64,000 bases of DNA. Source: Candidatus Kaiserbacteria bacterium. Lineage in GTDB: Bacteria > Patescibacteriota > Minisyncoccia > Phycocordibacterales > Phycocordibacteraceae. Within the stretch, counting starts at the first letter, position 1. Each line of letters begins with the position of its first letter. The notes below the pieces were generated by a model that saw only the letters and a program-made list of their open reading frames with translations, searched no databases and was not told where the DNA came from. A program made the translations under genes and the position numbers. Positions 1,084 through 16,240 of this stretch are shown piece after piece. The DNA is taken from positions 18,287-82,286 of the forward strand of contig JACRFL010000001.1 in NCBI GenBank assembly GCA_016217905.1, written 5' to 3'.

Positions 1084-2157
1084 ATGGCTACAGCCGGCAA
1101 TATGAAGAAACGGGTACGGACGGCTACTCCGCCCGCCTTTTCCTTCGACAGCGCGGCGCTCGTGAAAAAGCTCCTTGCCGCGGTGCCGCAGCGCGCCCGC
1201 GAAATACTCATCCGCCGTTTCGGTCTGGGCAGCAATCCCGCGCGGGAGACGCTCGAGTCGATCGGCGACCGCTCCAGCATCACCCGCGAGAGGGTTCGGC
1301 AGATCGAGGCCGCCGGGCTCGACGCGGTACGGGCAAGCAAAACTTTTAAAGAATCAAAGGCTGTTTTTGAAGAAATCGCGCGCTACATAGATTCCCTTGG
1401 CGCCATTGTGCCCGAGGATACGCTGCTTGCCGCGCTCGGCAAGGATGAAAAGAGCCGCAACCGGTTCCGCTTTTTCCTCGTGCTCGATTCGGCATTTTCT
1501 CGCGAGCGCGAGACGAACGACTTTCTCGCGCGCTGGCACATCGACAGCGCGACTGCGAAAAACATCCACGACGCGCTTTCGAAGCTCTATACCTCGCTTT
1601 CCGACGAGGAGGTCGTCCCCGAGGGAGAAATTCTGGACCGTTTCCTCGACGAACTCAAGGACGTGAACGACGCGTATAAGAACGAGGAGGTATTGAAGCG
1701 TTGGCTCTCGCTCTCTAAGCACATTGCGAGCAACCCGCTTGCCGAGTGGGGGCGCGTTACCGCGCCCGCCATCCGTATCAAAGGCATCCGCGACTATGCG
1801 TATCTCGCAATCAAGCGCCATGGCGAACCCATGCATTTCTCGACCGTGGCTAAAACGATCGGGACGCTCTTTTCCAAAAAAGCGCACGTCGCGACGACTC
1901 ACAACGAACTCATCAAAGATCCGCGCTTCGTGCTTGTGGGCCGCGGACTCTACGCGCTCACCGAATGGGGCTACAAGCCGGGCGTCGTGCGCGATGTCAT
2001 CCGCGAAACGCTCGAACGGACGGGCCCGCTGAAAAAAGACGAAATCATCAAGCAGGTGAAAAAGGCCCGCTTCGTCAAAGACAACACCATCCTGGTGAAC
2101 CTCAACGATCCTCGCTACTTCAAGCGCCTGAAGGATGGCCGCTACGCGGCGATCTAG
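1084..2157 (+). CDS. sigma-70 region 4 plus C-terminal HARE-HTH-like winged-helix domain protein (putative transcription factor)
   Basis: N-terminus RFGLGSNPARETLESIGDRSSITRERVRQIEAAGL matches the sigma-70 region 4 HTH. C-terminus PMHFSTVAKTI...DPRFVLVGRGLYALTEWGY matches the HARE-HTH pattern of the RNAP delta subunit family. Confidence 0.6.
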   Translation: MATAGNMKKRVRTATPPAFSFDSAALVKKLLAAVPQRAREILIRRFGLGSNPARETLESIGDRSSITRERVRQIEAAGLDAVRASKTFKESKAVFEEIARYIDSLGAIVPEDTLLAALGKDEKSRNRFRFFLVLDSAFSRERETNDFLARWHIDSATAKNIHDALSKLYTSLSDEEVVPEGEILDRFLDELKDVNDAYKNEEVLKRWLSLSKHIASNPLAEWGRVTAPAIRIKGIRDYAYLAIKRHGEPMHFSTVAKTIGTLFSKKAHVATTHNELIKDPRFVLVGRGLYALTEWGYKPGVVRDVIRETLERTGPLKKDEIIKQVKKARFVKDNTILVNLNDPRYFKRLKDGRYAAI

Positions 2158-2162
2158 TTTTT

Positions 2163-2203
2163 GAACAAGCGCGCCCGCTTAAGCGCGGGCGCGCTTGTTT
2201 TAT
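2163..2203 (+). terminator. perfect 15-bp inverted repeat (AACAAGCGCGCCCGC-TTAA-GCGGGCGCGCTTGTT) followed by a T-rich run, bidirectional terminator-like
   Basis: Read directly from the sequence just after the 2157 stop. Perfect palindrome with GC-rich stem, followed by ttttattgg. Confidence 0.6.
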
Positions 2204-2219
2204 TGGTATACTGACCCGC

Positions 2220-3623
2220 ATGCTTCCGTTCGCACACGCGGTTGAAAAATTCAGGGGAAAATTCACCACCACGATCGGCGTCCGGGTCGAGCCGTGGCCG
2301 CTTCTTCTGGTCAGCCTCTCCGTCCTCCTCATGGCGTTCGTGTTCATGCCGGGCACGGTTTCGTTCGCATTTTCCATCGCGCTTTTTCTTGCGCCCTTAT
2401 GGCTCCCATTCGTACTCGTCGGCGGGGCATGGAAGATATGGTACGTGCTCAAACGCTCCGAATTCATTGCGGGGCAAAAATACATACTGCTCGAAATCAA
2501 GCCGCCGCGCAGCCTCGTGAAGACGCCGCTCGCCATGGAGGCGTTCCTCTCATCCCTCCACCTTACGGGGAGTGAATCGACCTGGTACCAGCGCTTTACG
2601 GGCGGGGTCCGGCCGTACTGGTCTCTGGAAATCGTTTCTCTTGAAGGAAAAATCCATTTTTACCTCTGGGGGAGGGAAGCGTATCGCCGGATGGTCGAGT
2701 CCCAATTGTATGCGCAGTATCCGGGCGTGCAGGTCGTCGAGGCAATCGATTACACCCGGCTCATCGATCCCAATTCGAAAGATTGGATTATGTGGGGATG
2801 CGACTTCAAACATACCGCCGAAACGCCCCTGCCGATCAAGACTTACGTCGAATACGGACTCGACAAGGTGCAAAAGGAACCGGAACAGGTCGATCCTCTC
2901 GCTAACCTCATCGAGTTTATGAACTCGGTCGGCAAAGGAGAACAGATCTGGCTTCAATTCATCATCCGCGCCCATCGGGGAGAGCGCTACGGCACGACGC
3001 CCGGGGGCATTACGAGCACCAAACGCAATAAAGACGACAAGCCGTACACCTGGAAGGATGAGGCAAACGACCTTGTACAGAAGATCCGCGCGGAAACCGT
3101 CAACAAGGTGAGATATCGGGACGTCTTTACCGGAGAAATGCGGGAGACGGAAGGATTCCCGAACCCGACGAAGGGGCAGATCGAGAAAATCGCGGCCATC
3201 GAACGCAACGTCTCGAAGCTCGGCTTCGATGTCGGCATACGCGGCCTGTACATGGCGAAGCCGGAACACTTTCACGGCCCGACCATTGCCCACCTCATCG
3301 CGCTCTTCAAGCCCTTTACGAGCGAGGGCTGGAACGGCCTTAATTCATCCGCGGGCATGAAGCGTTTCGACGACTATCCGTGGGAAGTCGGCGTGGAAAA
3401 AAAGAAAAGCTTCTTCCGCCGCGAGATGGTGATGCAGTATCGCCGTCGCCAATTTTTCTACGACCCCTTTTTCGAGGGAGATGTGCCGCCGAACGAAACG
3501 CCGGTCATGAGCACCGAGGAACTCGCGACCGTCTTCCATATCCCGTCGCGCGCGATCGAAGCGCCCGGCCTCGAGCGTATTCCCTCGGCGACCGGCGAAG
3601 CCCCCGCGAATCTGCCGGTGTGA
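2220..3623 (+). CDS. hypothetical membrane protein (N-terminal TM helices plus large soluble domain), function unknown
   Basis: ORF 1965..3623. The 1965 start is rejected because it overlaps the terminator and the upstream gene. The in-frame ATG at 2220 precedes hydrophobic helices (LLLVSLSVLLMAFVF, ALFLAPLWLPFVLVGG). No recognisable catalytic motif. Confidence 0.5.
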   Translation: MLPFAHAVEKFRGKFTTTIGVRVEPWPLLLVSLSVLLMAFVFMPGTVSFAFSIALFLAPLWLPFVLVGGAWKIWYVLKRSEFIAGQKYILLEIKPPRSLVKTPLAMEAFLSSLHLTGSESTWYQRFTGGVRPYWSLEIVSLEGKIHFYLWGREAYRRMVESQLYAQYPGVQVVEAIDYTRLIDPNSKDWIMWGCDFKHTAETPLPIKTYVEYGLDKVQKEPEQVDPLANLIEFMNSVGKGEQIWLQFIIRAHRGERYGTTPGGITSTKRNKDDKPYTWKDEANDLVQKIRAETVNKVRYRDVFTGEMRETEGFPNPTKGQIEKIAAIERNVSKLGFDVGIRGLYMAKPEHFHGPTIAHLIALFKPFTSEGWNGLNSSAGMKRFDDYPWEVGVEKKKSFFRREMVMQYRRRQFFYDPFFEGDVPPNETPVMSTEELATVFHIPSRAIEAPGLERIPSATGEAPANLPV

Positions 3624-3628
3624 ATCGC

Positions 3629-4585
3629 ATGGATGTTTTCCGGCGGCACGCCCCGTGGTTCGTATCGTTCGCGCTCGCGCTGCTTCTTCTCGCCGGCTAT
3701 CAGATCCTCTTTGCCGCGCCCGACGATTTCCCCCGGGGAAGCACGATAGGGATTGCCCGGGGGACGGCCGCGACGCGCATCGCGGAAGATCTCGCTGACG
3801 CGCGCGTCATCAAGCACCCTGCGCTCCTGCAGCTCCTCTTGTACGCAGCGGGGGAAAGCGCCGCGATACAAGCGGGCGCGTATCGTTTTGAAAAACCGCA
3901 AAATCTGTTCGTCGTGGCTTCGCGGCTCGTGACCGGAGCGTACGGTCTCCCTCCGGTACGCGTAACCTTTTTCGAGGGAATAACGGTGCGGGAAGCTGCG
4001 GAGAAAGTCACGGAAGCGCTGCCTGACATATCGCAAGAGGATTTTCTCAAGGAGGCGCAGCCGTATGAAGGCTATCTTTTCCCAGATACGTATTTTTTTT
4101 CACCTTCTTCCGATGCCGCCTCCGTCGCCGCGTCGATGCGCGGAAACTTCAACGAGAAAATATCGGCTCTGGCGCCGGCGATTTCCGCTACCGGCCGCAC
4201 GCTCTCCGACATCGTCATTCTGGCCTCGCTTGTTGAAAAAGAGGCGCGCACGAGCGAGAGCAGACGCCTCGTCGCCGGTATCCTCTCCAATCGTTTAAAA
4301 CTCGGCATGCCGCTCCAGGTCGACGCGGTTTTCGGCTACATCTTCGACCGCGACACGTATTCGCCCTCGCTCAAGGATCTCACCGTCGATTCGCCTTACA
4401 ATACCTACACGCACACGGGTCTCCCTCCCGGACCGATTGATAACCCCGGGCTCGACTCGCTTGAGGCGGTGGTACACCCGACGAAAACCGACTACCTCTA
4501 CTATCTCACCGGCAAGGACGGTGTAATGCATTATGCCATAACATACGCCGGTCACCAGACGAACCGAAAAAAGTATTTAGATTAG
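3629..4585 (+). CDS. mltG: endolytic murein transglycosylase MltG (YceG family)
   Basis: N-terminal TM, then the YceG-like domain with LQVDAVFGY and YNTYTHTGLPPGPIDNPG motifs. In-frame ATG at 3629. Confidence 0.8.
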   Translation: MDVFRRHAPWFVSFALALLLLAGYQILFAAPDDFPRGSTIGIARGTAATRIAEDLADARVIKHPALLQLLLYAAGESAAIQAGAYRFEKPQNLFVVASRLVTGAYGLPPVRVTFFEGITVREAAEKVTEALPDISQEDFLKEAQPYEGYLFPDTYFFSPSSDAASVAASMRGNFNEKISALAPAISATGRTLSDIVILASLVEKEARTSESRRLVAGILSNRLKLGMPLQVDAVFGYIFDRDTYSPSLKDLTVDSPYNTYTHTGLPPGPIDNPGLDSLEAVVHPTKTDYLYYLTGKDGVMHYAITYAGHQTNRKKYLD

Positions 4586-4594
4586 AATGGGCGC

Positions 4595-5533
4595 ATGGAT
4601 GTACGCGGCAAACACATATTCATAGGGCTTTCGGGAGGCGTGGATTCGGCGGTTTCTGCGGCACTTTTAAAACGAGCCGGAGCAGAAGTAACGGGCGTAT
4701 TCATCAAGGGCTGGTATCCGCCGGCCTTCGGCCCGTGCGCCTGGGCCGCGGAGCGCCGCGATGTGATGCGGGTGGCGGCGCGCCTGCAGATACCGTTTCT
4801 CACGCTCGACGCGGGCACCGAATATAAAAAGGGGGTTATCGATTACCTTCTCGCCGAGTATCGCGTGGGGCACACCCCGAATCCGGACGTCATGTGCAAC
4901 AGGGAAGTGAAGTTCGGCGCTTTCTACCGCTTCGCGAAGGCTGCCGGGGCGGACGCGATAGCGACGGGGCATTATCGTTCCGGAGAAAAAGACCAGAGCT
5001 ACTTCCTCTGGGCCGTGCCGAAAGAGATTCTGGCGGCAACGCTCTTTCCGGTGGGGAACCTTGAAAAAGATGAAGTGCGAGCGCTCGCAAAACGATTCAA
5101 CCTGTCGGTTGCGGAGAAAAAGGACAGCCAGGGCGTCTGCTTCCTCGGGAACAGATCGATGGAGGAGTTTTTGCGTGCGGAATTGGGGGACGACAACCCC
5201 GCGCTTCTCTATACCATCGGCCAGAGAATTTCGCGCCCGCACGGCCCGTGGTATGTGGTCGGTAAAAACGATGTCGCGAAAAAAGAAATCACGGTTTCAA
5301 GAACGCGGATCTCCGGCGCGCATTCGGTTCAATTTAAAGATGCGAATTGGCACGCTGAATCGGCCCGCGCCACCGAGGCGCAGTACCGGTATCGGGGCCC
5401 TCGCGTAAAAGGGCATGTCGAAAAAGACCGTTTTGTGAGCACAGAGCCGCTTCCCGAGATCCCCGTTCCCGGACAATCGACCGTCTTTTATCACAACGGA
5501 GAGCTCGTCGGTGGTGGTACTATTGTCGCATGA
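4595..5533 (+). CDS. mnmA: tRNA-specific 2-thiouridylase MnmA
   Basis: PP-loop SGGVDS. HTPNPDVMCN catalytic cysteine motif. GVCFLG. Confidence 0.85.
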   Translation: MDVRGKHIFIGLSGGVDSAVSAALLKRAGAEVTGVFIKGWYPPAFGPCAWAAERRDVMRVAARLQIPFLTLDAGTEYKKGVIDYLLAEYRVGHTPNPDVMCNREVKFGAFYRFAKAAGADAIATGHYRSGEKDQSYFLWAVPKEILAATLFPVGNLEKDEVRALAKRFNLSVAEKKDSQGVCFLGNRSMEEFLRAELGDDNPALLYTIGQRISRPHGPWYVVGKNDVAKKEITVSRTRISGAHSVQFKDANWHAESARATEAQYRYRGPRVKGHVEKDRFVSTEPLPEIPVPGQSTVFYHNGELVGGGTIVA

Positions 5534-5943
5534 ATCAAACGCGCCTGTGGGCCGCCGCGGCCATCATCGCGACTCTCGTCATTGCCGGATTCGTGCTTTC
5601 GGTACCGCACACCCGCGACGTTCCGAAGACCCCGGCTCCTCCCTCCGCGTTCGCGGGAGCTCCGTCTGTCACCATACGGGATGCGTTTAAGAGGGGCATG
5701 CATACCCTCACAGGCTCGATCATTGCTCCGGACGCGTGCTCCATTGTTTCCGCCCGCGCTTCTCGCGGCGACAACGCGTCGAGCACCAGGGACATCCTCG
5801 TCGAAGTGTCTCTGTCGGAGGATACGGGAGTTTGCCTCGAGCTTCCGACGCGCATGACCTTTGAGACAACGCTTGCGGCGCCAGCGAATTTGCCGATCGC
5901 CGTAACGATAAACGGCGCGGCAGCAAGCACGAGCGCGCCATGA
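5530..5943 (+). CDS. hypothetical protein with N-terminal TM anchor
   Basis: ATGA start/stop overlap with mnmA and with the downstream gene, implying translational coupling. Hydrophobic N-terminus AAAAIIATLVIAGFVL. Confidence 0.45.
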   Translation: MNQTRLWAAAAIIATLVIAGFVLSVPHTRDVPKTPAPPSAFAGAPSVTIRDAFKRGMHTLTGSIIAPDACSIVSARASRGDNASSTRDILVEVSLSEDTGVCLELPTRMTFETTLAAPANLPIAVTINGAAASTSAP

Positions 5944-6782
5944 CGACCCTGCCGATCATCAGCAAAGCCGACGGGACAAGCGAAGTCTTCGACTCGATGC
6001 GTCTGGTCTCCTCTTTGCGCAGGGCGGGCGCTGGCGCGCACGCCGCGGAGAGTATCGCGGAAGCGATTACGGGCGGGCTCGTTTCGGGCATGTCCTCGAA
6101 AGAGATTTACTCCCGCGCGTTCGCGCTTTTGCGCAAGGAAGCACGTCCCGTCGCCGCACGTTACGCGCTCCGGCGCGCGCTCCTCGAGCTCGGTCCGTCC
6201 GGCCACCCCTTCGAAGACTTCGTTTCGCACTTATATCGGGCGGAAGGCTGGCAGGTCGAGACGCGCAAAATAATAAAAGGAAAATGCGTATCGCACGAGG
6301 TCGACTTCTACGCGTCGCACCCGGGAGAAAATACCCATATCGCGGCCGAACTCAAGTATCACAACGATCCGGGCTACAAGACCGATCTGAAGGTGGCGCT
6401 CTACGTCAAGAGCCGTTTTGACGACATCTTCAGCTGCAATCCCGCGGTCCGCGCCTGTCCGATCGACCGCGGTCTTCTTGTCACCAATACCAAATTCACC
6501 TCGGAAGCGATCGTCTATGCGGCATGCGTCGGAGTAGAGCTCCTCGGTTGGGGGTACCCGGCGGAGAATAACCTTTTCGAGCGCATGGCCCGCGCGAAGG
6601 TATATCCTCTTACGGCGCTCACCGGACTCTCGCGTACCGAGAAGCGACTGCTTATCGAGCACGGCGTCGTCGCCGCCGACGAGATCCTCGCGGATCGACG
6701 CCGTCTCGACGTACTGCGCCTCTCCGCCACCCGCGTGGGCGAATTGCTCGCGGAAGCGGATGGTCTCCTTGCGCTTCCGTAG
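5940..6782 (+). CDS. ATP-cone domain fused to restriction-endonuclease-like (Mrr_cat/PD-(D/E)XK) domain protein
   Basis: N-terminus IISKADGTSEVFDSMRLVSSL...SKEIYSRAFALL...AARYALRRAL fits the ATP-cone pattern. Central HEVDFYAS...HIAAELKYH fits the D...ExK nuclease core. Confidence 0.55.
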   Translation: MTTLPIISKADGTSEVFDSMRLVSSLRRAGAGAHAAESIAEAITGGLVSGMSSKEIYSRAFALLRKEARPVAARYALRRALLELGPSGHPFEDFVSHLYRAEGWQVETRKIIKGKCVSHEVDFYASHPGENTHIAAELKYHNDPGYKTDLKVALYVKSRFDDIFSCNPAVRACPIDRGLLVTNTKFTSEAIVYAACVGVELLGWGYPAENNLFERMARAKVYPLTALTGLSRTEKRLLIEHGVVAADEILADRRRLDVLRLSATRVGELLAEADGLLALP

Positions 6783-6805
6783 GCGTCCCGTGATATTGTT
6801 CCCGT

Positions 6806-7282
6806 ATGATGAAAAGCTTCTCTCCCTACTCTTTTGTCGCCGGCGTCATGGTCGGCGCCCTGTTCGCGGGAGCGTGGTTTCTGCGCGAACCTCTCGCCGC
6901 CATGCGAAGCGGATCTCTGCCCGAAGAAGCGTCGAGAGTCCCTAGCGCGGCGCAGGGAAGCAGTGCGATTTCCGTCGCTGACCAGCCCGCGGGCGACAGC
7001 GTTATCGTGGAATCGGTGACCGTCCCGCCGCCCGGCGTATGGGTCGCTGTGCGCGAGGTAATCGGAGGCAGTCTGGGGAACGTGCTCGGAGCCGCGCGCG
7101 TCGGCGGACCCCGAAGCCAGGTCGTCATCTCTCTCTTGCGCGCGACCGAACCCGGCCGAGCCTACGCGATTGAGCTCTATCGCGACGATGAAAGCGGCGC
7201 GTTCGACCCCGCGACGTTCAGCGTGTACGTTGATTTCGATACCGGAGCGCGAGTTGTCGCGTACTTCACGACCGTCGAGTGA
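6806..7282 (+). CDS. hypothetical protein with N-terminal TM anchor
   Basis: Hydrophobic N-terminus SFVAGVMVGALFAGAWFL. Same strand, tightly packed with neighbours. Confidence 0.45.
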   Translation: MMKSFSPYSFVAGVMVGALFAGAWFLREPLAAMRSGSLPEEASRVPSAAQGSSAISVADQPAGDSVIVESVTVPPPGVWVAVREVIGGSLGNVLGAARVGGPRSQVVISLLRATEPGRAYAIELYRDDESGAFDPATFSVYVDFDTGARVVAYFTTVE

Positions 7283-7295
7283 TGTGTCTTCGACT

Positions 7296-8093
7296 ATGGC
7301 CTCCGGAAGTTCAAAGTCACAAGGCTACGGCGTCTTCGACCCGTTCTCGCCCGAACCGTTTCGGGTGAGCAGATCGAAGATCGATCTCTTTACCGAATGC
7401 CCGCGCTGTGCGTATCTCGACATGCGGCTCGGCGTGAAGCGTCCGTCGATGCCGGCGTTTACGCTCAACAACGCGGTCGACGAACTCCTCAAGCGCGAGT
7501 TCGATATTCACCGCGCCGAGGGCTCCAAGCACCCGCTCGTCCTGCGCTACGGTCTCGACGCGGTACCGCTTAACGACGACCGGATGGAGGAGTGGCGCGA
7601 CGCGCTTCGCCGCGGCATACGCTTCCTCCACGAACCGACGAATCTGCTCATCCGCGGCGGCATCGACGACGTGTGGGTCAACCCGGCGGGAGAGTTCATC
7701 ATTGTGGATTACAAAGCGACCAGCAAGAAGGTGGGACCGAGCACCGAAGAAGATTTATATGATTCGTATAAACGGCAAATGGAAATTTACCAATGGCTCT
7801 TCCGCAGAAATGGCTTCGCCGTCTCGCCGACCGGCTATTTCGTCTACGTGAATGGGAAATCCGATGCAAAAGCATTCGACGGCAAACTTGAATTCGATAT
7901 CGAGCTTATCCCATACACCGGCAGCGACGCGTGGGTCGAGCCGGCGATCCTCGACATGAGGGAGGTGCTCATGAGCGACGACATTCCGCCCGTGGGCACC
8001 TCCTTCGGCGGCGGGCCGTGCGAATATTGCACGTATCGGGAGAGCGCGGGGAAGATATTGCGCAAAGTTCACGCAAAAAACAGCGAGAAATAA
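7296..8093 (+). CDS. Cas4/RecB-like PD-(D/E)XK nuclease with terminal CxxC pairs
   Basis: In-frame ATG at 7296 within ORF 7170..8093. GIDDVW...IIVDYKAT (D, ExK-type core). QMEIYQWL (QhxxY motif of RecB-family nucleases). Cys pairs CPRC near the N-terminus and CEYC near the C-terminus. Confidence 0.6.
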   Translation: MASGSSKSQGYGVFDPFSPEPFRVSRSKIDLFTECPRCAYLDMRLGVKRPSMPAFTLNNAVDELLKREFDIHRAEGSKHPLVLRYGLDAVPLNDDRMEEWRDALRRGIRFLHEPTNLLIRGGIDDVWVNPAGEFIIVDYKATSKKVGPSTEEDLYDSYKRQMEIYQWLFRRNGFAVSPTGYFVYVNGKSDAKAFDGKLEFDIELIPYTGSDAWVEPAILDMREVLMSDDIPPVGTSFGGGPCEYCTYRESAGKILRKVHAKNSEK

Positions 8094-8100
8094 AACGTGT

Positions 8101-8364
8101 ATGAAAAGTTCGTTTGCCGATCGAGTGCGAGATGTAGTACGTCAAATTCCAAAAGGTGAAACACTACCCTATAGGGTAGTAGCCAGGCTGGCGGGAAGCC
8201 CGCGCGCGGCACGCGCGGTCGGCACTATTATGAAAAATAATTATGACCCAAGCGTGCCCTGTCATCGCGTTATCAGGAGCGACGGGAAGATCGGAGACTA
8301 CAATCGCGGCGGAAAAGAAAAGAAGCGGGCGCTCCTGCGGGCCGAGGGTGTCAAAGGGATCTGA
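8101..8364 (+). CDS. MGMT-family DNA-binding domain protein (methylated-DNA-protein-cysteine methyltransferase C-terminal domain, PCHRV active-site Cys present)
   Basis: 87 aa. LPYRVVARLAGSPRAARAVG...PCHRVI matches the Ogt/Ada C-terminal domain signature. Confidence 0.7.
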   Translation: MKSSFADRVRDVVRQIPKGETLPYRVVARLAGSPRAARAVGTIMKNNYDPSVPCHRVIRSDGKIGDYNRGGKEKKRALLRAEGVKGI

Positions 8365-8366
8365 AA

Positions 8367-9035
8367 ATGGAAGTCAAAATTGAATCGTCGTGGAAGGAGA
8401 GATTGAAAGACGAGTTTGCGAAAGAATATTTCGCCGAGCTCACCTCGTTCGTAAAAAAGGAGTATCAAGAAGGGAGGGTGTACCCGCACCCCAAGAACAT
8501 TTTTCGCGCGTTTGACCTGTGTCCGTTCGAGAAGGTGAAGGTGGTAATACTCGGGCAGGATCCCTATCACGGAGCGGAGCAGGCCAACGGCCTCGCGTTT
8601 GCTGTCGACGAGAACGCGACATTGCCCCCGTCGCTCCAAAATATTTTTAAGGAGATACAGAGCGATATGGGAAAGCCGCTTTTGCATACCGATGGAGATT
8701 TATCTCGATGGGCGAGACAGGGCGTCCTCCTCCTTAATGCAACCTTGACCGTCCGCGCGCATACTGCCGGCTCACACCAAGAGCGGGGCTGGGAATTATT
8801 TACCGATGCTGCCATCAAATCGCTTTCCGAAGAACGCGAGCATCTCGTCTTTATGCTCTGGGGCAATTATGCCAAAGCGAAGGGCGCGCACATCGACCGC
8901 TCCAAGCATCTGGTCCTCGAGGCCTCGCATCCCTCGCCTTTCTCCGCCGCTTCCGGCTTCTTCGGCTGCAAACATTTCAGCAAGGCGAATGACTATCTCG
9001 CTACGCACGGCGGGACACCGATAGACTGGCTTTAA
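8367..9035 (+). CDS. ung: uracil-DNA glycosylase (family 1)
   Basis: GQDPYHG water-activating motif. LLLNATLTVRAHTAGSHQ. Typical Ung length. Confidence 0.9.
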   Translation: MEVKIESSWKERLKDEFAKEYFAELTSFVKKEYQEGRVYPHPKNIFRAFDLCPFEKVKVVILGQDPYHGAEQANGLAFAVDENATLPPSLQNIFKEIQSDMGKPLLHTDGDLSRWARQGVLLLNATLTVRAHTAGSHQERGWELFTDAAIKSLSEEREHLVFMLWGNYAKAKGAHIDRSKHLVLEASHPSPFSAASGFFGCKHFSKANDYLATHGGTPIDWL

Positions 9036-9044
9036 TCCACTTGC

Positions 9045-9078
9045 ATCTACTACAAGATAGTACTAATATGTAGTACAT
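9045..9078 (+). promoter_or_regulatory. nested palindromic operator (TACTACA-AGA-TAGTACTA-ATA-TGTAGTA) overlapping the start of the antitoxin gene
   Basis: Read from the sequence. Outer 7-bp inverted repeat and inner self-complementary TAGTACTA. AT-rich, immediately 5' of the ATG at 9077. Confidence 0.5.
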
Positions 9079-9295
9079 GGCCACCATCACAATACCGCTT
9101 AGCAAAGAACTCGAATCCTTTATCGAAGGAGAGCTTAGGGCAGGGACAAGCGATTCTAAGGCGCATCTCGTCCGTTATGCGCTCTCTCGGCTTCAGGAAG
9201 AAAGGGCGCTCTCGCGTCTTCAAGAAGCCGAATTAGATATCAGGGAGGGTCGAGTTTACCAAGGAGATTTGAAGAAATTGCTCAAGCAGTTTTAA
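9077..9295 (+). CDS. type II antitoxin, ribbon-helix-helix (ParD/CopG-like)
   Basis: 72 aa. IPLSKELESFIEGELRAGTSDSKAHLVRYALSRL fits the RHH fold. Immediately precedes and nearly abuts a RelE/ParE-like ORF. Confidence 0.6.
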   Translation: MATITIPLSKELESFIEGELRAGTSDSKAHLVRYALSRLQEERALSRLQEAELDIREGRVYQGDLKKLLKQF

Positions 9296-9296
9296 T

Positions 9297-9551
9297 ATGC
9301 GGTATTTATATACTGCGCGATTTCTGCGTTCGCTTAAGAAGTGCGAAGAGGCCGTACGGGATGACATATTCCGTGCCGTGAAGTTGTTTGAGACCGGGGA
9401 AAGCAATGGTGTTTTGAAATTGCATAAGTTACACGGCAAATTCAAATTGTACCGCGCTTTTTCCGCAAACTTCTCATATCGAGTACTCATTAAGATAGAA
9501 AAAAGAACGGTGTATTATGTCGATGTCGGCACTCACGCTATTTATCTATGA
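9297..9551 (+). CDS. type II toxin, RelE/ParE superfamily
   Basis: 84 aa. LHKLHGKFKLYRAFSANFSYRVLIKIEKRTVYYVDVGTHAIY matches the RelE/ParE C-terminal pattern (L.G...R...YR.IY.I......V...GHR..IY). Low-GC local composition. Confidence 0.6.
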   Translation: MRYLYTARFLRSLKKCEEAVRDDIFRAVKLFETGESNGVLKLHKLHGKFKLYRAFSANFSYRVLIKIEKRTVYYVDVGTHAIYL

Positions 9552-10126
9552 ACCACACGCCGCAGATAAAGAAAGCAATACAGTTTGCGGCGCGCAAACA
9601 TCACGGACAGTTTCGCAAAGAAACGGAGCCGCTGCCGTGTATTACCCACCTCTTCTCGGTGGCGCTCCTGGTGGCCGAAGATGGCGCTGATGATAACGTC
9701 GTCACGGCGGCGCTTCTGCATGACACGATTGAAGACACGCCCACCACGCGCGAAGAAATCGTCGCCGCGTTTAATGAGCGGGTCGCGGAGCTCGTCGAAT
9801 CGGTGAGCGAGGTGAAAGAAGCGGGAGGGGAGATCCTTGATTGGAAGGGGCGCAAAACGCACTACCTCGCGCATTTGGAAGATGCGAGCGACGACGCGCT
9901 CCTCATCGCTCTTGCGGACAAGGTGGACAATGTCGAGAGCTGGAACGAAACATTCGAAAAAGAAGGTGCGACGTTCTTGCAGCACTGGAAACGGCCGCAA
10001 GAAGAGTATCTGTGGTTCTATGGCGAGGCGCTCCGTATCGCGCAAGCGCGATTGCCGGAACATTTGCTCACGAAACGGTATGCCGAGGCCTACCAAATTT
10101 TCGCCCGTTCCTTGGGCTCTCGATAG
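9548..10126 (+). CDS. HD-domain (p)ppGpp hydrolase-like protein (small alarmone hydrolase, RelA/SpoT HD family)
   Basis: HLFSVALLVAEDGADDNVVTAALLHDTIEDT is the RelA/SpoT-type HD hydrolase signature. No synthetase domain. Confidence 0.7.
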   Translation: MNHTPQIKKAIQFAARKHHGQFRKETEPLPCITHLFSVALLVAEDGADDNVVTAALLHDTIEDTPTTREEIVAAFNERVAELVESVSEVKEAGGEILDWKGRKTHYLAHLEDASDDALLIALADKVDNVESWNETFEKEGATFLQHWKRPQEEYLWFYGEALRIAQARLPEHLLTKRYAEAYQIFARSLGSR

Positions 10127-12051
10127 AGCGTATCGCCCTTTTTCACCCCGAATGCCGCATAAAACTCGGGAAGATTGGAGAGCGGGCCGTTGACACGGAA
10201 GCACGAGGGCGAATGCGGGTCCGTCATCACCATCGTCTTGCGGTACGCCGGTCGTTCCTGCTCGCGCTCGGTCGCCGCGTAGCCGAGGAAAAAGCGCTGT
10301 TCGGGCGTAAAGCCGGCGATATTCCTGCGGCCGGTTTTCTTGAGTCGGAGTTGGTATGCGTCATAGGCGATCGAGATGCCGCCAAGGTCGGCGATGTTCT
10401 CGCCGAGCGTGAGCCGCCCGTTTACGTTCATCCCGGGCGCGACTTCGTAATCGTTAAATTCTTTCACCAGGCGCCTTGCCTTCGCCGCGAATCGTTTCGA
10501 ATCGGTCTTCGTCCACCACGTCTTCCTATTTCCATTGCCGTCAAATTTGCACCCCTGATCGTCGAAGCCATGCGTGATCTCGTGTCCGATGACCGAACCG
10601 ATCGCGCCATAATTAAACGCGTCGTCCGCGGTAGCGTGGAAGAAAGGATGTTGAAGTATCGCGGCAGGGAAGACTATGTCATTAAGGCCGAAGCTGCAAT
10701 ACGCATTCACCGTTTGCGGACTCATGAACCATTCGTCGTGGTCAACCGGTTTTTTGAGTCTTCGAAGCGCGCGGCGGTGTTCATATTCGCTCACGCGCAT
10801 CGCATTCCCGGCGAAGTCATTGACGAATATCCGAAGCCCGCGATACGTCTTCCATTTGTTCGGATAGCCCAGCTTCCGGTGCATCTGACGGAGCTTCCGT
10901 ATCGCTTTCACCTTGGTCGCGGCGCTCATCCAGTCAAGATTCTTAATACGCGTTTCATACGCGCGGAACAGATCCGCAACGATGACCTCAACCTTATGTT
11001 TCGCTTCGTGAGGGAAGTACTCCGCCACGTAGAGTTCGCCCAGGAGCTCGCTGAGGCCCCCGTTGACCATGCGCAGTATCCGCCGCCACAAGGGCTTCAT
11101 GTGCTTTGTGCCGGAAAGCACAATGCTGTAAAAAGTAAAACTTTCTTTCTCGAGTTTGGGCGTAAGAACGGATGAAAAATCACCGACAATATGGGTGCGC
11201 AGATACGTCTTCCACGATTCGATTGGGAAGGTATGGAGCATACGTTCGGCGGCGATAAAGAAATCAGGCTGCATCACAACAACCTCCCCCGGCTTCGCGC
11301 CAAGACTTTTAAAGTACTCCTTCCAATCGACACCTTTCGCGAGTTTCTGGAGTTGAGACAGCGATTTTTTATGATACGTCTTATCGACGTCGCGCAGGTC
11401 TTCTTTTTTCATCGAGACTTTGGCGAGCGCGGTTTCTATTTCGAGCACAATTGCCGCCTCCTGTCGGGCCTCCCTAGGACGACCGGCAAGTTCCAAGAGT
11501 CGCACCAGGTGCTTTTCATAGGCGCTTCGTACGCGCCGCGACTCAGCGTCGTCCTTTATGTAATAATCACGGTCTGGCATACCGAGACCACCCTGGCCGA
11601 GATGGATAATGTACTTCTCGCTATCTTTCATATCCTGATCAATGCCGATGCCCCAAATGCCGCCCGAGCCGATGCGCTCGAGGTGTGCAATGGTACGGAC
11701 CACATCCTCCGGTGTCTTGATGTTTTCGATGCGTTTCAAGAGCGGTTGGAGCGGCGCTAGGCCGAGCGAGCGGCGCCGTTTGAGATGAATGCCGGAACGG
11801 TAGAGATCGCGAATCATTTGCTCGGCGCTCTCGGTCTTTGTGCGCTTTTTTGATGTGACCTTCTTCAGCAGTGTTTGAAGCTGTTTGTCGGTCGTGTGGC
11901 GCAGCATGGTAAAAGAGCCCCAGCGCGCCTCCGCTTTAGGTATCGGATTGCGCTTCATCCACGCCCCGCTCGCGTAGTGAAAAAAATCGTCCTGCGGGCG
12001 CACCTTCGTATCAATATCCCGCGTATCAAATCCCCATCCGTTTTTTCTCAT
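10090..12051 (-). CDS. pepO: M13 family zinc metalloendopeptidase (PepO/neprilysin-like)
   Basis: HEITHGFDDQG (HExxH). ENIADLGG. NAYC. C-terminal ...AKIW typical of M13 peptidases. Confidence 0.85.
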   Translation of the reverse strand: MRKNGWGFDTRDIDTKVRPQDDFFHYASGAWMKRNPIPKAEARWGSFTMLRHTTDKQLQTLLKKVTSKKRTKTESAEQMIRDLYRSGIHLKRRRSLGLAPLQPLLKRIENIKTPEDVVRTIAHLERIGSGGIWGIGIDQDMKDSEKYIIHLGQGGLGMPDRDYYIKDDAESRRVRSAYEKHLVRLLELAGRPREARQEAAIVLEIETALAKVSMKKEDLRDVDKTYHKKSLSQLQKLAKGVDWKEYFKSLGAKPGEVVVMQPDFFIAAERMLHTFPIESWKTYLRTHIVGDFSSVLTPKLEKESFTFYSIVLSGTKHMKPLWRRILRMVNGGLSELLGELYVAEYFPHEAKHKVEVIVADLFRAYETRIKNLDWMSAATKVKAIRKLRQMHRKLGYPNKWKTYRGLRIFVNDFAGNAMRVSEYEHRRALRRLKKPVDHDEWFMSPQTVNAYCSFGLNDIVFPAAILQHPFFHATADDAFNYGAIGSVIGHEITHGFDDQGCKFDGNGNRKTWWTKTDSKRFAAKARRLVKEFNDYEVAPGMNVNGRLTLGENIADLGGISIAYDAYQLRLKKTGRRNIAGFTPEQRFFLGYAATEREQERPAYRKTMVMTDPHSPSCFRVNGPLSNLPEFYAAFGVKKGDTLYREPKERAKIW

Positions 12052-12096
12052 GCGCGCATAGTATATGAATCTTTCATCTCATGCTATCTTTTTCGT

Positions 12097-13902
12097 ATGA
12101 CTGTTAGCGAGGTACGCAAGCGCTATATCGATTTTTTTGCAGCGAGGGGGCACGCAGTGATTCCCTCCGCGCCGATCGTGCCCGAGAACGACCCGACGAC
12201 ACTCTTTACCTCGAGCGGGATGCAGCCCCTCGTGCCGTACCTGTTGGGCCAGCCACACCCCGAAGGGAACCGCCTCGTCGATTCGCAACTCTCGTTCCGT
12301 GCGGGGGACATCGAAGAAGTGGGAGACAACCGTCACACGACGTTTTTCGAGATGCTCGGCAACTGGTCGCTCGGAGATTATTTTAAGAAAGAGCAGTTGC
12401 CGTGGATCTACGAATTTTTAACTGAAGAACTGAATCTCCCGAAGGAGCGGCTCTGGATGACCTGTTTTGTAGGAGATGAAGCGCTCGGCTTGCCGAAGGA
12501 CACCGAGTCGGCAGACATATGGAAAAAAATCGGAATGCCCGAAGATCGTGTACTTTTTTATGACGCGAAGAAAAATTGGTGGAGCCGCTCCGGCACGCCG
12601 GAGAAGATGCCGACAGGAGAACCGGGCGGCCCCGATTCTGAAATCTTTTTTGATTTTCAAACCCCGCACGACAAGGCATTTGGCGAAACGTGCCACCCCA
12701 ACTGCGACTGCGGGCGCTTCATGGAGATCGGCAATTCGGTTTTTATGGAATACATCAAGAATGCCGACGGCACCTTCGGCAAGCTTCCGAAACAGAACGT
12801 CGACTTCGGCGGCGGGCTCGAACGTCTAGCTGCAGCGACCCGAGATGACGCCGATGTGTTCCTCATCGATGCATTTGACGCTGCGCGCACCATACTCGAA
12901 AAACGCTCCGGCCATCACTATGGGGATGTAGGACGTACGACGTCCTACATGAGATCGTTCCGCATCATCCTTGATCACGTGCGCGCGGCAACTTTCATGA
13001 TCGCCTTCGGAATCCGTCCCTCGAACACCGAGCAGGGCTACGTGCTGCGCCGCCTCATTCGCCGCTCGATTCGCGAAGCTGACAAGCTCGGGATCGTCGA
13101 TGCGGTGCTTGCCGAAGTCGCCGAAGGGTTCGGCGCTGCATACGCCGATGCCTATCCGTTCGTTCAGGCGACGGTACAGACCATTCGCGGGGAGCTCGAG
13201 AAGGAGGAGGCGCAATTCAGGAAGACGCTCGTGCACGGCCTGCGCGAGCTCGAAAAGATGAGAGGCGCCGTCGATGCCTTCATGCTCTTCACCACCTATG
13301 GATTCCCGGTAGAACTCACTGAAGAAATTGCGAAAGAGCGCGGTATTGCGCTCGATATGGCCGCGGTGAAGGCAAAGATAGAAGTGCATCAAGCGCTCTC
13401 GAGAGCGGGCGCGGTGCAGAAATTTGCGGGTGGGCTTGCTGACCACGCCGAGCAGACGGTGCGCTACCACACCGCGCACCACCTGCTTCTTAAGGCGCTG
13501 CAGATAGTGCTCGGTCCCGACGTGCACCAGCGCGGGAGCAATATCACGAGCGGACGACTCCGCATCGACTTCAGTTGGGGAGCCAAGATGACGCCGGAAC
13601 AAATCGCAGCGGTTGAAAAAATCGTGAACGAGAAGATTGCGGAACAGATTCCCGTCATTCGTACGGATATGAAAAGAGATGAGGCGAAGAAGCTCGGCGC
13701 CGAGCGCGAATTCGGCGCGTCCTACCCCGACACCGTGTCGGTATATTCGATCGGCCCGCTCGAGGGCGCGTTTTCGATAGAATTCTGCGGCGGGCCGCAT
13801 GTCGAGAACACGGGCGAGCTCGGAGCAGGGAAGCGCTTCAAGATCGTAAAGGAAGAAACGTCGTCTGCCGGCGTTCGCCGCATCAAGGCGGTGCTAGAAT
13901 GA
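12097..13902 (+). CDS. alaS: alanyl-tRNA synthetase, short form (catalytic, tRNA-recognition and editing domains; no C-Ala domain)
   Basis: Start at the in-frame ATG 12097; ORF 11875 would overlap pepO. FTSSGMQP, GNWSLGDYFK, HTAHHLL and CGGPHV editing-domain motifs. Contains an in-frame 25-nt palindrome at 12926-12950. Confidence 0.85.
   Translation: MTVSEVRKRYIDFFAARGHAVIPSAPIVPENDPTTLFTSSGMQPLVPYLLGQPHPEGNRLVDSQLSFRAGDIEEVGDNRHTTFFEMLGNWSLGDYFKKEQLPWIYEFLTEELNLPKERLWMTCFVGDEALGLPKDTESADIWKKIGMPEDRVLFYDAKKNWWSRSGTPEKMPTGEPGGPDSEIFFDFQTPHDKAFGETCHPNCDCGRFMEIGNSVFMEYIKNADGTFGKLPKQNVDFGGGLERLAAATRDDADVFLIDAFDAARTILEKRSGHHYGDVGRTTSYMRSFRIILDHVRAATFMIAFGIRPSNTEQGYVLRRLIRRSIREADKLGIVDAVLAEVAEGFGAAYADAYPFVQATVQTIRGELEKEEAQFRKTLVHGLRELEKMRGAVDAFMLFTTYGFPVELTEEIAKERGIALDMAAVKAKIEVHQALSRAGAVQKFAGGLADHAEQTVRYHTAHHLLLKALQIVLGPDVHQRGSNITSGRLRIDFSWGAKMTPEQIAAVEKIVNEKIAEQIPVIRTDMKRDEAKKLGAEREFGASYPDTVSVYSIGPLEGAFSIEFCGGPHVENTGELGAGKRFKIVKEETSSAGVRRIKAVLE
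12926..12950. repeat. 25-nt perfect palindrome ATGTAGGACGTACGACGTCCTACAT, copy 1, in-frame inside alaS (encodes VGRTTSYM)
   Basis: Identical to 38343-38367 inside gltX. 11-bp arms around an ACG centre. Confidence 0.9.
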
Positions 13903-13906
13903 ACCG

Positions 13907-14953
13907 ATGAACTTGTTCTCCGGCTTTTTCCGCAAAGGGAAAAAAAGAGAGTCGGTCGTGCTCGTCGACATCGGTGCCGCGTCGGTCGCGGGCGCGTACG
14001 CGCGGTTTACGGAAGGAGAGCTCCCGATTTTGTTGTACACGAGACGGCTCCCTGTCGAGCCGCGCGAGGGAGAACCGCAGGAGCGCGCGATGCTGCGCGC
14101 TCTCAAAATCCTCGGCGATACGCTCATCCGCGAGGGGGCTCCCGCGCTTATGCGTCATACCGGCAGCGGGAGGAGCGATCTCATCCTTGCGTCGATCGAC
14201 GCGCCCTGGCAGAAAACCACAGTACGCACCGAACGCTTCGAGCAGAAAATGCCGTTTCTTTTTACGAAAAGCCTTGCCTCCGAGATAGTGAAAAAGACAA
14301 GCGTTACGGTTCCCCGGAAGATTCTCGCCGACGAGACCGTCATCGGCACCATCCTCAACGGCTATCGGACGAACAGTCCTTACGGAAAGAGGGCGCACCG
14401 GGCAACCCTCATCATCCTCACGTCGCTCATCGATGAGAGCATCGCCGACCACATCGTCTCCGTGCTTCGAAGCGTGTACCACACGAAGCGCATTCTTCCA
14501 ATCGCGGGAAGCTCGCTGCGCTACCAGGCGATGCACGCCGCTTTCCCGCACGAGCGGGACGCGCTCATCATCGACGCGACGGGACCGCAGACATCCCTCG
14601 CGCTTATACGCAGGGGACTTTCGGTCTCCGTCCTCGAGGCGGCGAATACACACGACACCGATTCGTGGACACGGAACGTGATAGACGAGCTTGCCGAGCT
14701 TGCGAAGCGTTATCCGCTGCCGCGGACGATATTCCTGCTCGCCCGCGAACCGGAAATAACCGTTCTGCGCGAGAAACTCGACGCGGCGAACCTGGGCAAA
14801 ATATGGCTCTCCGACACGCCGCCGCACACCGTCTCAGTGCTCGCGAGCCATATCGGCGGACTGGTCCACCAGGCGACGACGGCCCCCGCGGACCTCCCGC
14901 TCCTCCTTATGGCCCTCTTCTACCAACACTCCGCGTTCGGCGAAAAAACGTAA
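13907..14953 (+). CDS. actin-like ATPase fold protein (divergent FtsA/PilM-like)
   Basis: N-terminal VVLVDIGAASVAGAY and later ALIIDATGPQTSLALI resemble the two phosphate-binding motifs of the FtsA/PilM/ParM actin-like fold. Otherwise divergent. Confidence 0.4.
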   Translation: MNLFSGFFRKGKKRESVVLVDIGAASVAGAYARFTEGELPILLYTRRLPVEPREGEPQERAMLRALKILGDTLIREGAPALMRHTGSGRSDLILASIDAPWQKTTVRTERFEQKMPFLFTKSLASEIVKKTSVTVPRKILADETVIGTILNGYRTNSPYGKRAHRATLIILTSLIDESIADHIVSVLRSVYHTKRILPIAGSSLRYQAMHAAFPHERDALIIDATGPQTSLALIRRGLSVSVLEAANTHDTDSWTRNVIDELAELAKRYPLPRTIFLLAREPEITVLREKLDAANLGKIWLSDTPPHTVSVLASHIGGLVHQATTAPADLPLLLMALFYQHSAFGEKT

Positions 14954-15001: not shown

Positions 15002-16240
15002 ATGCGTACACTTGATGACATCATACCGCCGTCACGGCGTAAGGAGACGGAGCCGTTCGGCCAACTGCCCCCAAATGACGGGCGCGAATCATCGCGCCTC
15101 TCAAGCGACCGTCCTCCACGGTTCCCTTACGTTACTCTCATTACCATCGTATCCGTTATTGCCGTGTCCGTCGGCGCGCTCTTCTACTTCTCGAGCGCGA
15201 AGGTCGAGATCACGCCTCACACCGTCTCCGCGGCGGTACAGGGATCCTTCACGGCGACCAAGAGTTCCGGCGATCTGCCTTTTGAAATCATTACGGCGCA
15301 AAAAATAGCTTCACAGAGCGTCAAAGGAAGCGGGACCAAGACCGTTTCCTCATCCGCTTCCGGGACCATCGTCATCTACAACACGCAGTCCAAGGCCCAG
15401 CAGCTCGTAACCAATACCAGATTCGCGACCACGGCCGGCCTCATTTTCCGGATCCACTCGGCGATAACGATTCCGGGCGGTAGCACTGCGAAGCCCGGCA
15501 GCATAAGGGTAAAGGTCTATGCCGACCAGCCCGGTAGCTTGTACAATGTCGGCCAGACTTCTTTCACGATCCCCGGATTCGCGGGAACCCCGCAGGCGAC
15601 CCAGGTCTATGCGCGCTCGACCAGTGCCATGACCGGCGGAGCTTCCGGAATCATCCCGATCGTAGACGCGCCCGCGCAAGCGCAGGCGCGCAGCGCGCTT
15701 GTCGGCGCGCTCGGTCCGGATCTTGTGGCAAGCATTGGGACGCAGATACCCGAGGGATACACTCTCCTCCCGGGCGCGACGACGACGACGTACCAGGATC
15801 TCGCGCTCGAACCCTCCTCGACGACAGGCATGGTAGAGGTGAAAGAGCAGGGGACCATCACCGCGATCGTTTTCCCGACCGCCGCGCTCGCGAAGGCGGT
15901 CGCTTCATCGGTCTCCGGCCTCAACTATCAGGGCGAGCCGCTTACTCTTTCTCTCTCATCCGGGAATTCGCTCATGCTCAAGCCCGGGAGCGATCTCACC
16001 GATACGCAGGCCTCCTCTTTCCCCTTCACGCTTACCGGGACGGCGTCGTTCGTGTACTCGGTCGATCCGACCCGCATCGCTGCGGCCGTGAGCGGAAAAA
16101 CGCGCTCAGCGGCGGAGGTGGCTCTCACGAACTATCCGGAGATCAAACGGGCCGTCATCATCCTTCGTCCGTTCTGGAGACAGACATTCCCCCAGGATCC
16201 CGCCGCGATCTCGGTAACGGTCGATTCGGGCGCATATTGA
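15002..16240 (+). CDS. hypothetical single-pass membrane protein with large Ser/Thr/Gly/Ala-rich extracytoplasmic domain
   Basis: TM helix VTLITIVSVIAVSVGALFYF after a ~40-aa N-terminal segment. Beta-rich, low-complexity C-terminal 350 aa. Confidence 0.45.
   Translation: MRTLDDIIPPSRRKETEPFGQLPPNDGRESSRLSSDRPPRFPYVTLITIVSVIAVSVGALFYFSSAKVEITPHTVSAAVQGSFTATKSSGDLPFEIITAQKIASQSVKGSGTKTVSSSASGTIVIYNTQSKAQQLVTNTRFATTAGLIFRIHSAITIPGGSTAKPGSIRVKVYADQPGSLYNVGQTSFTIPGFAGTPQATQVYARSTSAMTGGASGIIPIVDAPAQAQARSALVGALGPDLVASIGTQIPEGYTLLPGATTTTYQDLALEPSSTTGMVEVKEQGTITAIVFPTAALAKAVASSVSGLNYQGEPLTLSLSSGNSLMLKPGSDLTDTQASSFPFTLTGTASFVYSVDPTRIAAAVSGKTRSAAEVALTNYPEIKRAVIILRPFWRQTFPQDPAAISVTVDSGAY

Follow-up and report, generated by a model that had tools for sequence, protein, structure and literature searches.

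We have analyzed a stretch of 64,000 nucleotides (hereafter the window) from the genome of a Candidatus Kaiserbacteria bacterium (contig JACRFL010000001.1, positions 18,287 to 82,286) and, within it, a gene at positions 5940–6782 of the forward strand that codes for a protein of 280 amino acids, here called the target. The protein is 100% identical to the GenBank entry 'hypothetical protein HY972_00160, Candidatus Kaiserbacteria bacterium' (P0001), and its start codon is supported by the N-termini of 32 close homologues. The ATG overlaps the stop codon of the preceding open reading frame (ORF) in the form ATGA. The ORF is complete, and its G + C content at third codon positions (GC3), 0.74, is typical for the genes of a window of 59.6% GC; given this value and the hundreds of homologues, a chance ORF could be rejected. 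From the N- to the C-terminus we found an ATP-cone made of a beta-hairpin and four helices (residues ~5–82, window positions 5952–6185), a linker of the pattern GPxGxxFE (L84-G85-P86-S87-G88-H89-P90-F91-E92, 6189–6215), a PD-(D/E)XK nuclease core (residues 93–205, 6216–6554) and a C-terminal domain resembling helix-hairpin-helix (HhH) modules and similar to the one in the archaeal protein AF1548 (residues 222–277, 6603–6770), all on the forward strand. An earlier note made from the DNA letters had proposed the fusion of an ATP-cone with a restriction-endonuclease fold, and this is borne out by Pfam matches in the family, by profile alignment, by the fold and by homology to the AF1548 crystal structure (PDB 1Y88). 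The third domain was not mentioned there.

The Pfam family of the ATP-cone (PF03477) matches residues 7–79 of the target alone with an E-value of 7.9e-5 and 23.6 bits, for a gathering threshold (GA) of 25.8. Borderline scores of this kind were judged at the level of the family, using 39 diverse relatives at 33–75% identity to the target and counting matches with E ≤ 0.01; the ATP-cone was found in 36 of the 39 (best E 3.3e-10). A profile of the N-terminal 84 residues aligned with the cone of Escherichia coli NrdR with an hhalign probability of 94.5% (E 7.5e-8), and the only natural proteins of the Protein Data Bank (PDB) that it found were the cones of NrdD, NrdR and NrdA. We have also examined an AlphaFold2 (AF2) model of the target, obtained from a shallow alignment of 33 sequences at 75–82% identity, with a predicted local distance difference test (pLDDT) of 82 and a predicted template-modelling score (pTM) of 0.68. 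In the model the cone has two strands (E6–8 and E14–16) followed by four helices, and it superposes on NrdR (9fxk, 9a6n and 7p37) and NrdD (8p2c) with a root-mean-square deviation (rmsd) of 2.0–3.0 Å over 81–90 residues and a Foldseek probability of 1.00. The rmsd among genuine cones is 1.7–3.4 Å (PMC11226230), so that the cone of the target falls inside the range found between them.

The predicted ligand residues of the target cone are I7, K9, G12, E15, F17, R21, Y75 and R78. In NrdR, the Sco substitutions V48A, K50A, E56A and K62A (equivalent to Eco V51, K53, E59 and K65) weaken or abolish the binding of nucleotides, and K53 forms a bridge between the two that are bound (PMC12176259). The profile alignment places these four E. 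coli positions at I7, K9, E15 and R21 of the target. We have counted their conservation, like that of all other residues given below, in an alignment of 146 representatives of clusters at 50% identity: I or V is found at I7 in 141 of them, K at K9 in 145, E at E15 in 101 and K or R at R21 in 141. The KR(D/N)G motif that the earlier note had singled out for checking is present in part: the lysine (K9) is there, whereas the arginine is absent and the target reads KADG. The same form is found in the clade of the target, most of the family has KASG, and archaeal members such as P0271 have KRDG; the E. coli NrdR motif reads K-S-N-D, likewise without the arginine. By the criteria of fold and ligand residues the target holds a real ATP-cone, which is predicted to bind nucleotides.

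The linker equals the catalytic core in conservation: G85, G88, F91 and E92 are invariant (146/146), and P86 is kept in 142 of the 146. It connects the last helix of the cone directly to the catalytic alpha1 helix, and its last residue, E92, is the first acidic one of the nuclease site, so the linker would be the obvious path for an allosteric coupling from cone to nuclease. For the core itself, Mrr_cat (PF04471) matches the target with 22.5 bits, above its GA of 21, and 37 of the 39 relatives also match. The D…ExK core read in the earlier note as HEVD…AELKYH corresponds to H119-E120-V121-D122 and A135-A136-E137-L138-K139-Y140-H141, and its catalytic residues proved to be intact: E92, E120 (codon 6297–6299), D122 (6303–6305), E137 (6348–6350) and K139 (6354–6356) are invariant in 146/146, and so are R159, D162 and N183. 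Two cysteines of the nuclease domain, C116 (6285–6287) and C196 (6525–6527), are each kept in 139/146 and are also found in AF1548; they might form a disulfide, a metal site or a redox switch. The C-terminal domain is covered by AF1548-like_C (PF22357), which matches residues 222–277 with 17.1 bits in the full target and with 21.0 bits when the C-terminus is taken in isolation, both below the GA of 23.9. It was matched in 24 of the 39 relatives, some members pass the GA, and the Archaeoglobus protein reaches 98 bits. The domain is helical, and its Archaeoglobus copy has weak similarity to HHH_5 (E 7e-4), HhH-GPD and RAD51D_N. Weak matches to HHH_5 and HhH-GPD make a non-specific role in binding the DNA backbone plausible, and the domain is probably an HhH-like DNA-binding module.

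The nuclease and the C-terminal domain (residues 93–277) matched chain 1y88_A with a phmmer E-value of 2.8e-23 and, with the family profile, of 3.5e-50; the C-terminal domain aligns to its residues ~140–196. The AF2 model matched the same structure with a Foldseek E-value of 2.4e-14 and a TM score of 0.75 normalised to the Foldseek target, although 1Y88 presumably lies within the AlphaFold training data, which bears on the model. AF1548 is a true homologue with the same D...ExK triad. The GOS paper (PMC1821046) mentions the protein as a restriction endonuclease by prediction, with D38, E51 and K53 as predicted catalytic residues. 1Y88 is the sole solved structure of the family, for which NCBIfam has no model. 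The crystallised chain, ~30% identical to the target, differs from it in lacking the cone, the linker (GPSGFGFE in Archaeoglobus) and the alpha1 Glu. We have found that the best match to the 1Y88 sequence, the Archaeoglobus protein P0271 (L084:6001–6798; 99% identical, 265 amino acids), starts with MLRVRKRDGRLEEF, a canonical cone, and shares the three-domain architecture of the target. After its tag the crystallised chain begins at V92 of this full-length protein, and 1Y88 is therefore without a regulatory domain because the gene model was truncated at the N-terminus. Among the top 120 archaeal relatives in a search with the 1Y88 sequence, 114 carry PF03477, the full-length AF1548 protein included, and for this reason a cone-less ancestor of AF1548 type was rejected. 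The cone-nuclease fusion is a constitutive and ancient architecture of the family and no local novelty.

An exhaustive HMMER search gave 1049 clusters (50% identity) at E ≤ 1e-3 and 390 at E ≤ 1e-30, nearly all of them of ~280 amino acids and aligned across residues 6–277 of the target. A pattern scan of species genomes, with a subset of 10 sequences, confirmed a member in at least 595 GTDB species. The hosts include many lineages of Patescibacteria, Bacteroidota, genera of Balneolales type, one metagenome-assembled genome (MAG) of Nitrospinaceae and archaea; MAG labels are given as deposited, for example 'uncultured Candidatus Saccharibacteria'. Pontibacter roseus DSM 17521, Cyclobacterium lianum, Chryseobacterium and Flagellimonas are cultured Bacteroidota with a member, and on the archaeal side there are Archaeoglobus, Geoglobus, Ferroglobus placidus, Hadesarchaea, Aenigmarchaeota and Nanoarchaeota, DPANN lineages included. 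The databases name members variously 'ATP cone domain-containing protein', 'restriction endonuclease', 'ATPase' or 'Holliday junction resolvase'. The target is an ordinary member of this catalogued family without assigned function, and nothing in it is unique to this locus.

In the window the target belongs to a run of co-oriented genes on the forward strand that overlap or nearly abut: DUF8128, mltG (YceG), mnmA, a gene for a protein of 137 amino acids, the target, DUF7282, a PDDEXK_1 gene, one for an alkyltransferase-like protein (ATL) and one for a uracil-DNA glycosylase (UDG), with alaS further downstream. The gene mnmA (tRNA 2-thiouridylase) lies at 4595–5533 and the membrane-anchored 137-residue protein at 5530–5943. 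The start of the latter overlaps the stop of mnmA and its stop overlaps the start of the target, which indicates translational coupling of the three. Downstream come the DUF7282 protein (6806–7282), the PDDEXK_1 nuclease (7170–8093, with a true start probably at ~7296), which is Cas4/AddB-like and has a Cys cluster, the ATL of 87 amino acids with the DNA-binding domain of MGMT only (8101–8364) and the UDG (8367–9035). Positions 7170–9035 form a compact DNA-repair cluster, and in many loci of the Candidate Phyla Radiation (CPR) the PDDEXK_1 and ATL genes again follow the family member. The longest ORFs of DUF8128 (1965–3623) and mltG (3380–4585) share 244 nt. As the YceG domain does not begin until residue 125 and the orthologue of locus L001 has 318 amino acids, translation of mltG probably starts near 3630. 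In the DUF8128 ORF, too, an Arg-rich extension at the N-terminus is probably untranslated.

We have compared the neighbours of the family in 82 loci by simple longest-ORF calls and BLASTP clustering, in which only Pfam-annotated clusters received names. Upstream and on the same strand, mnmA was found in 34 loci, mltG in 25 and DUF8128 in 23. The downstream neighbours include PDDEXK_1 in 13 (cluster c8), a UDG-superfamily cluster in 11 (c10, with a representative of 202 amino acids) and MgtC in 14. Proteins of the cluster of the 137-residue protein (c13) occupy position −1 in 8 loci, and the DUF7282 cluster (c14) also appears in 8. A tblastn search with the UDG of the window gave matches in two (L001 and L041) of nine loci checked. 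The syntenic block, located at 1965–13902 of the window, in L001 and in ~20–34 other CPR loci, reads Sigma70_r4/HARE-HTH, DUF8128, mltG, mnmA, membrane protein, target, DUF7282 or MgtC, PDDEXK_1, ATL, UDG and alaS, and the same gene order was seen again in a 387-kb contig of Paceibacterota. When we compared the identity of the target and of MnmA to their orthologues, the values were 77 vs 75% in a close relative and 43–47 vs 38–46% in distant CPR lineages. The target follows MnmA in this, indicating that it evolves like a housekeeping enzyme. The rest of the 64 kb is core genome, with aminoacyl-tRNA synthetases, RpoA, DnaK/J, DnaB, RecR and cell-wall genes. No gene for a ribonucleotide reductase (RNR) was recognised among the ORFs of the window, part of which were scanned with Pfam, and none was seen in the related loci. 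Further downstream, two small ORFs without Pfam match, 9077–9295 (72 amino acids) and 9297–9551 (84 amino acids), resemble a pair of toxin-antitoxin type, the second sharing 4 nt with the beginning of an HD_4 protein (9548–10126) with an HD domain of the (p)ppGpp-hydrolase type. After alaS there are two co-oriented ORFs without Pfam match, 13907–14953 (348 amino acids) and 15002–16240 (412 amino acids), and a similarly placed ORF (cluster c12) is found in nine CPR loci.

The contexts outside the CPR are different. In the Bacteroidota, a beta-CASP/RMMBL nuclease is located downstream (+1 or +2) of the family member in 13 of 30 loci. Other neighbours are universal stress proteins (Usp), P-type ATPases, thymidine/AMP-phosphorylase-like and phosphoribosyl-pyrophosphate (PRPP)-synthetase-like enzymes, an AAA_28/dNK-like kinase, an archaeal-type glyceraldehyde-3-phosphate dehydrogenase (GAPDH) and a D-2-hydroxyacid dehydrogenase. 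Five loci (L008, L074, L073, L058 and L066) share a recurrent island of Usp, the family gene, the beta-CASP/RMMBL nuclease, the phosphorylase-like and PRPP-synthetase-like genes and a P-type ATPase, sometimes with genes for the archaeal-type GAPDH and a D-lactate-dehydrogenase-like protein. It has the look of an island for energy or oxygen stress that carries a module for the recycling of nucleotides. An identity of this Usp/P-type-ATPase island with the lxa low-oxygen locus of Burkholderia was rejected, as the lxa paper mentions no such nuclease. Archaeal neighbourhoods vary (CorA, MscS, a permease-Usp fusion, DUF389). Ion-transport and stress genes are found beside the family in unrelated lineages: MgtC in the 14 CPR loci, P-type ATPases in 18 Bacteroidota loci (e.g., L026, L053 and L058) and, in archaea, CorA in Ferroglobus, MscS in Archaeoglobus and amino-acid-permease-Usp fusions in two loci; neighbours of this kind lie at L081:4936–5448, L083:4958–6001, L084:5193–6035, L085:1722–3998 and L088:4904–7144. 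They may point to a connection with Mg2+/ATP or with osmotic stress, or be there by coincidence.

Among known systems, NrdR has the same sensor domain, with an hhalign probability of 94.5%, an rmsd of 2–3 Å and conserved ligand residues, and there too the cone is linked to a module that binds nucleic acids; for NrdR the established output is an oligomerisation that depends on nucleotides. The domain order, however, is reversed, the cone being N-terminal in the target, and the output of NrdR is a Zn-ribbon whereas the target has a catalytically intact nuclease. The N-terminal four-Cys Zn-ribbon that characterises NrdR is missing, the cone of the target starting already at residue ~5, and the RNR operon typical of NrdR was not recognised among the scanned ORFs of the window or seen in the related loci; a paralogue of NrdR was rejected. 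In the RNRs (NrdA, NrdD and NrdB) an N-terminal cone acts as an allosteric on/off switch, and the NrdD and NrdA cones were found by our PDB profile search, but the enzyme that they regulate is unrelated to the nuclease of the target. Can2/Card1 and Cdn1 follow the same logic of a small-molecule sensor joined to a PD-(D/E)XK nuclease and are structurally similar in the nuclease domain. Their sensor, in contrast, is a CARF domain that responds to cyclic oligoadenylate made in defence, while the target has an ATP-cone, presumed to respond to ordinary cellular nucleotides, in a non-defence context. The likeness to CARF- or SAVED-gated nucleases (Can2, Card1, Cap4) is found in the nuclease domain only. 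With Mrr and the type IV restriction endonucleases the target shares the Pfam family of the catalytic core, and differs in having neither an N-terminal winged-helix reader of modifications nor a defence context and in its slow vertical evolution.

We propose, with a probability of about one half, that the target is an ATP/dATP-regulated housekeeping or stress DNA nuclease of the AF1548 family that works in nucleotide salvage or repair and not in restriction or defence. By analogy with other cone proteins, the most plausible mechanism would be the gating of the nuclease by nucleotide levels. The cone would bind adenine nucleotides (ATP, dATP and perhaps ADP), binding would alter the oligomeric or conformational state, as it does in RNRs and NrdR, and this change would pass via the linker to the alpha1 helix with E92 and turn the cutting of DNA on or off. 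In this way an enzyme of housekeeping or stress, inherited vertically, would couple the cleavage of nucleic acids to the adenylate/deoxyadenylate pool. We lean to a turnover of DNA that would feed nucleotide salvage, with dATP as feedback signal, because to our knowledge every ATP-cone studied (RNR classes I–III and NrdR) serves the supply of deoxynucleoside triphosphates (dNTPs), because the family stands out in Patescibacteria and DPANN archaea and because the neighbours in Bacteroidota include enzymes of nucleic acids and nucleosides. Several points weigh against this proposal. Nucleotide binding, nuclease activity, the substrate (DNA or RNA) and their coupling are all predictions. The Pfam score of the target's own cone is under the gathering threshold (23.6 vs 25.8 bits), E15 is kept in just 69% of the representatives, and the Arg of the canonical KRDG is replaced by Ala (K9-A10-D11-G12). 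The pLDDT of the linker is below 50 at residues 80–85, so that the AF2 model fixes neither the inter-domain geometry nor the orientation of the domains. Gene contexts differ among CPR, Bacteroidota and archaea and hence imply no single pathway, the role in salvage is drawn from a minority of the Bacteroidota loci, and the neighbours conserved in CPR point more to repair.

Because of these CPR neighbours, the main rival explanation is a structure-specific nuclease of DNA repair or recombination, with a logic like that of Hjc or NucS, in which the cone would license cutting only when energy and dNTPs suffice for repair synthesis. PDDEXK_1 (13 loci), ATL and the UDG-superfamily cluster c10 (11 loci) lie downstream in the same orientation, three of the 39 relatives give weak Hjc matches in Pfam, several archaeal members are named 'Holliday junction resolvase' by JGI, and the weak similarities of the C-terminal domain to HHH_5, HhH-GPD and RAD51D_N fit as well. 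The repair neighbours are, however, confined to CPR, and Bacteroidota and archaea have stress, ion-transport and nucleotide enzymes instead. Besides, in the Geoglobus locus L085 a genuine Hjc is encoded separately, two genes downstream from the family member, and we know of no repair nuclease with an ATP-cone. On balance we regard this explanation as possible but rather unlikely. It is very improbable that the target is a nucleotide-sensing DNA-binding regulator like NrdR, in which the PD-(D/E)XK and HhH domains would only bind DNA and cleavage would not be the physiological output. NrdR, the only other cone protein outside the RNRs that has been studied, does consist of a cone and a DNA-binding domain and binds DNA only with ATP plus dATP (PMC12176259), and a member is listed by JGI, in one record, as 'transcriptional regulator NrdR family protein'. 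Yet the invariance of E92, E120, D122, E137 and K139 in all 146 representatives is not what one would expect if a nuclease fold had been taken over for binding alone, the target has no Zn-ribbon, and no conserved association with RNR genes appeared in the loci examined.

The earlier note had suggested that the protein could sense dNTP perturbation during phage infection, and in the corresponding explanation the target would be a solitary restriction or abortive-infection nuclease, released when the cone detects a phage-induced change in dNTPs or ATP. The Mrr_cat match above the gathering threshold, the resemblance of the nuclease domain to Can2/Card1-like proteins, Cdn1 and MspJI/AspBHI in Foldseek, the frequency of sensor plus PD-(D/E)XK designs in defence and the database label 'restriction endonuclease' all speak for it. 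But PADLOC gave no match for the target, a search of 2.9 million viral contigs (IMG/VR) turned up no relative, a viral structure library gave single-domain matches only, and no CRISPR or CBASS neighbours were seen. No methyltransferase or defence gene appeared among the annotated neighbour clusters present in at least 5 of the 82 loci, not every such cluster being annotated; one archaeal locus has an unrelated and divergently oriented MjaI restriction-modification pair. We found none of the marks of restriction-modification or type IV systems, be it a methyltransferase among the annotated clusters, a modification-reading domain, a defence island or a patchy distribution, and the target lacks the N-terminal DNA-recognition domain of Mrr type. 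Its position in a core operon, with mnmA on one side and repair genes on the other, a gene order kept across CPR lineages and conservation like that of MnmA, is the opposite of what patchy and fast-evolving defence genes look like. An identity as restriction enzyme was rejected for this context and synteny and for the missing methyltransferase partner among the annotated clusters, and the suggestion of a phage sensor is not supported in view of the housekeeping operon and the empty PADLOC and viral searches. We consider a role in defence highly unlikely.

That the fusion is poorly characterised experimentally agrees with our reading of the literature, in which we found no experimental study of it. 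Searches for the ATP-cone together with restriction endonuclease, nuclease, endonuclease or defence returned nothing on a cone-nuclease fusion, and nothing was found on the combination of neighbouring genes either. The ATP-cone paper of Aravind, Wolf and Koonin (2000) may already list a nuclease fusion. A paper on RNRs from 2024 describes the cone as essentially restricted to RNRs and NrdR (PMC11226230).

The target is among the better conserved genes without assigned function in Patescibacteria, and the cone-nuclease family is a good target for experiments. The record of PDB 1Y88 is also corrected, as its regulatory domain is absent only through the truncation of the gene model. A nuclease controlled by a cone would be a variation on two known designs, the cone-regulated enzymes and the sensors joined to PD-(D/E)XK effectors, of which Can2/Card1 is an example. 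Should the cone control cleavage, this would be a new way to tie the degradation or repair of DNA to the levels of ATP and dATP, as well as a new scaffold for ligand-controlled nucleases. A broader and more doubtful idea, which we put forward only tentatively and think unlikely to hold as a whole, is that the family represents a third major use of the ATP-cone, independent of RNRs, as a (d)ATP-feedback DNase universal to archaea and bacteria that would set the rate at which DNA is broken down to deoxynucleotides. Patescibacteria and DPANN archaea are thought to depend on salvaged nucleotides. If the idea were true, such a DNase would be the salvage-side counterpart of the inhibition of ribonucleotide reductase by dATP, and it would matter most in the reduced genomes of Patescibacteria, in DPANN archaea and in the dormancy or energy-stress islands of Bacteroidota.

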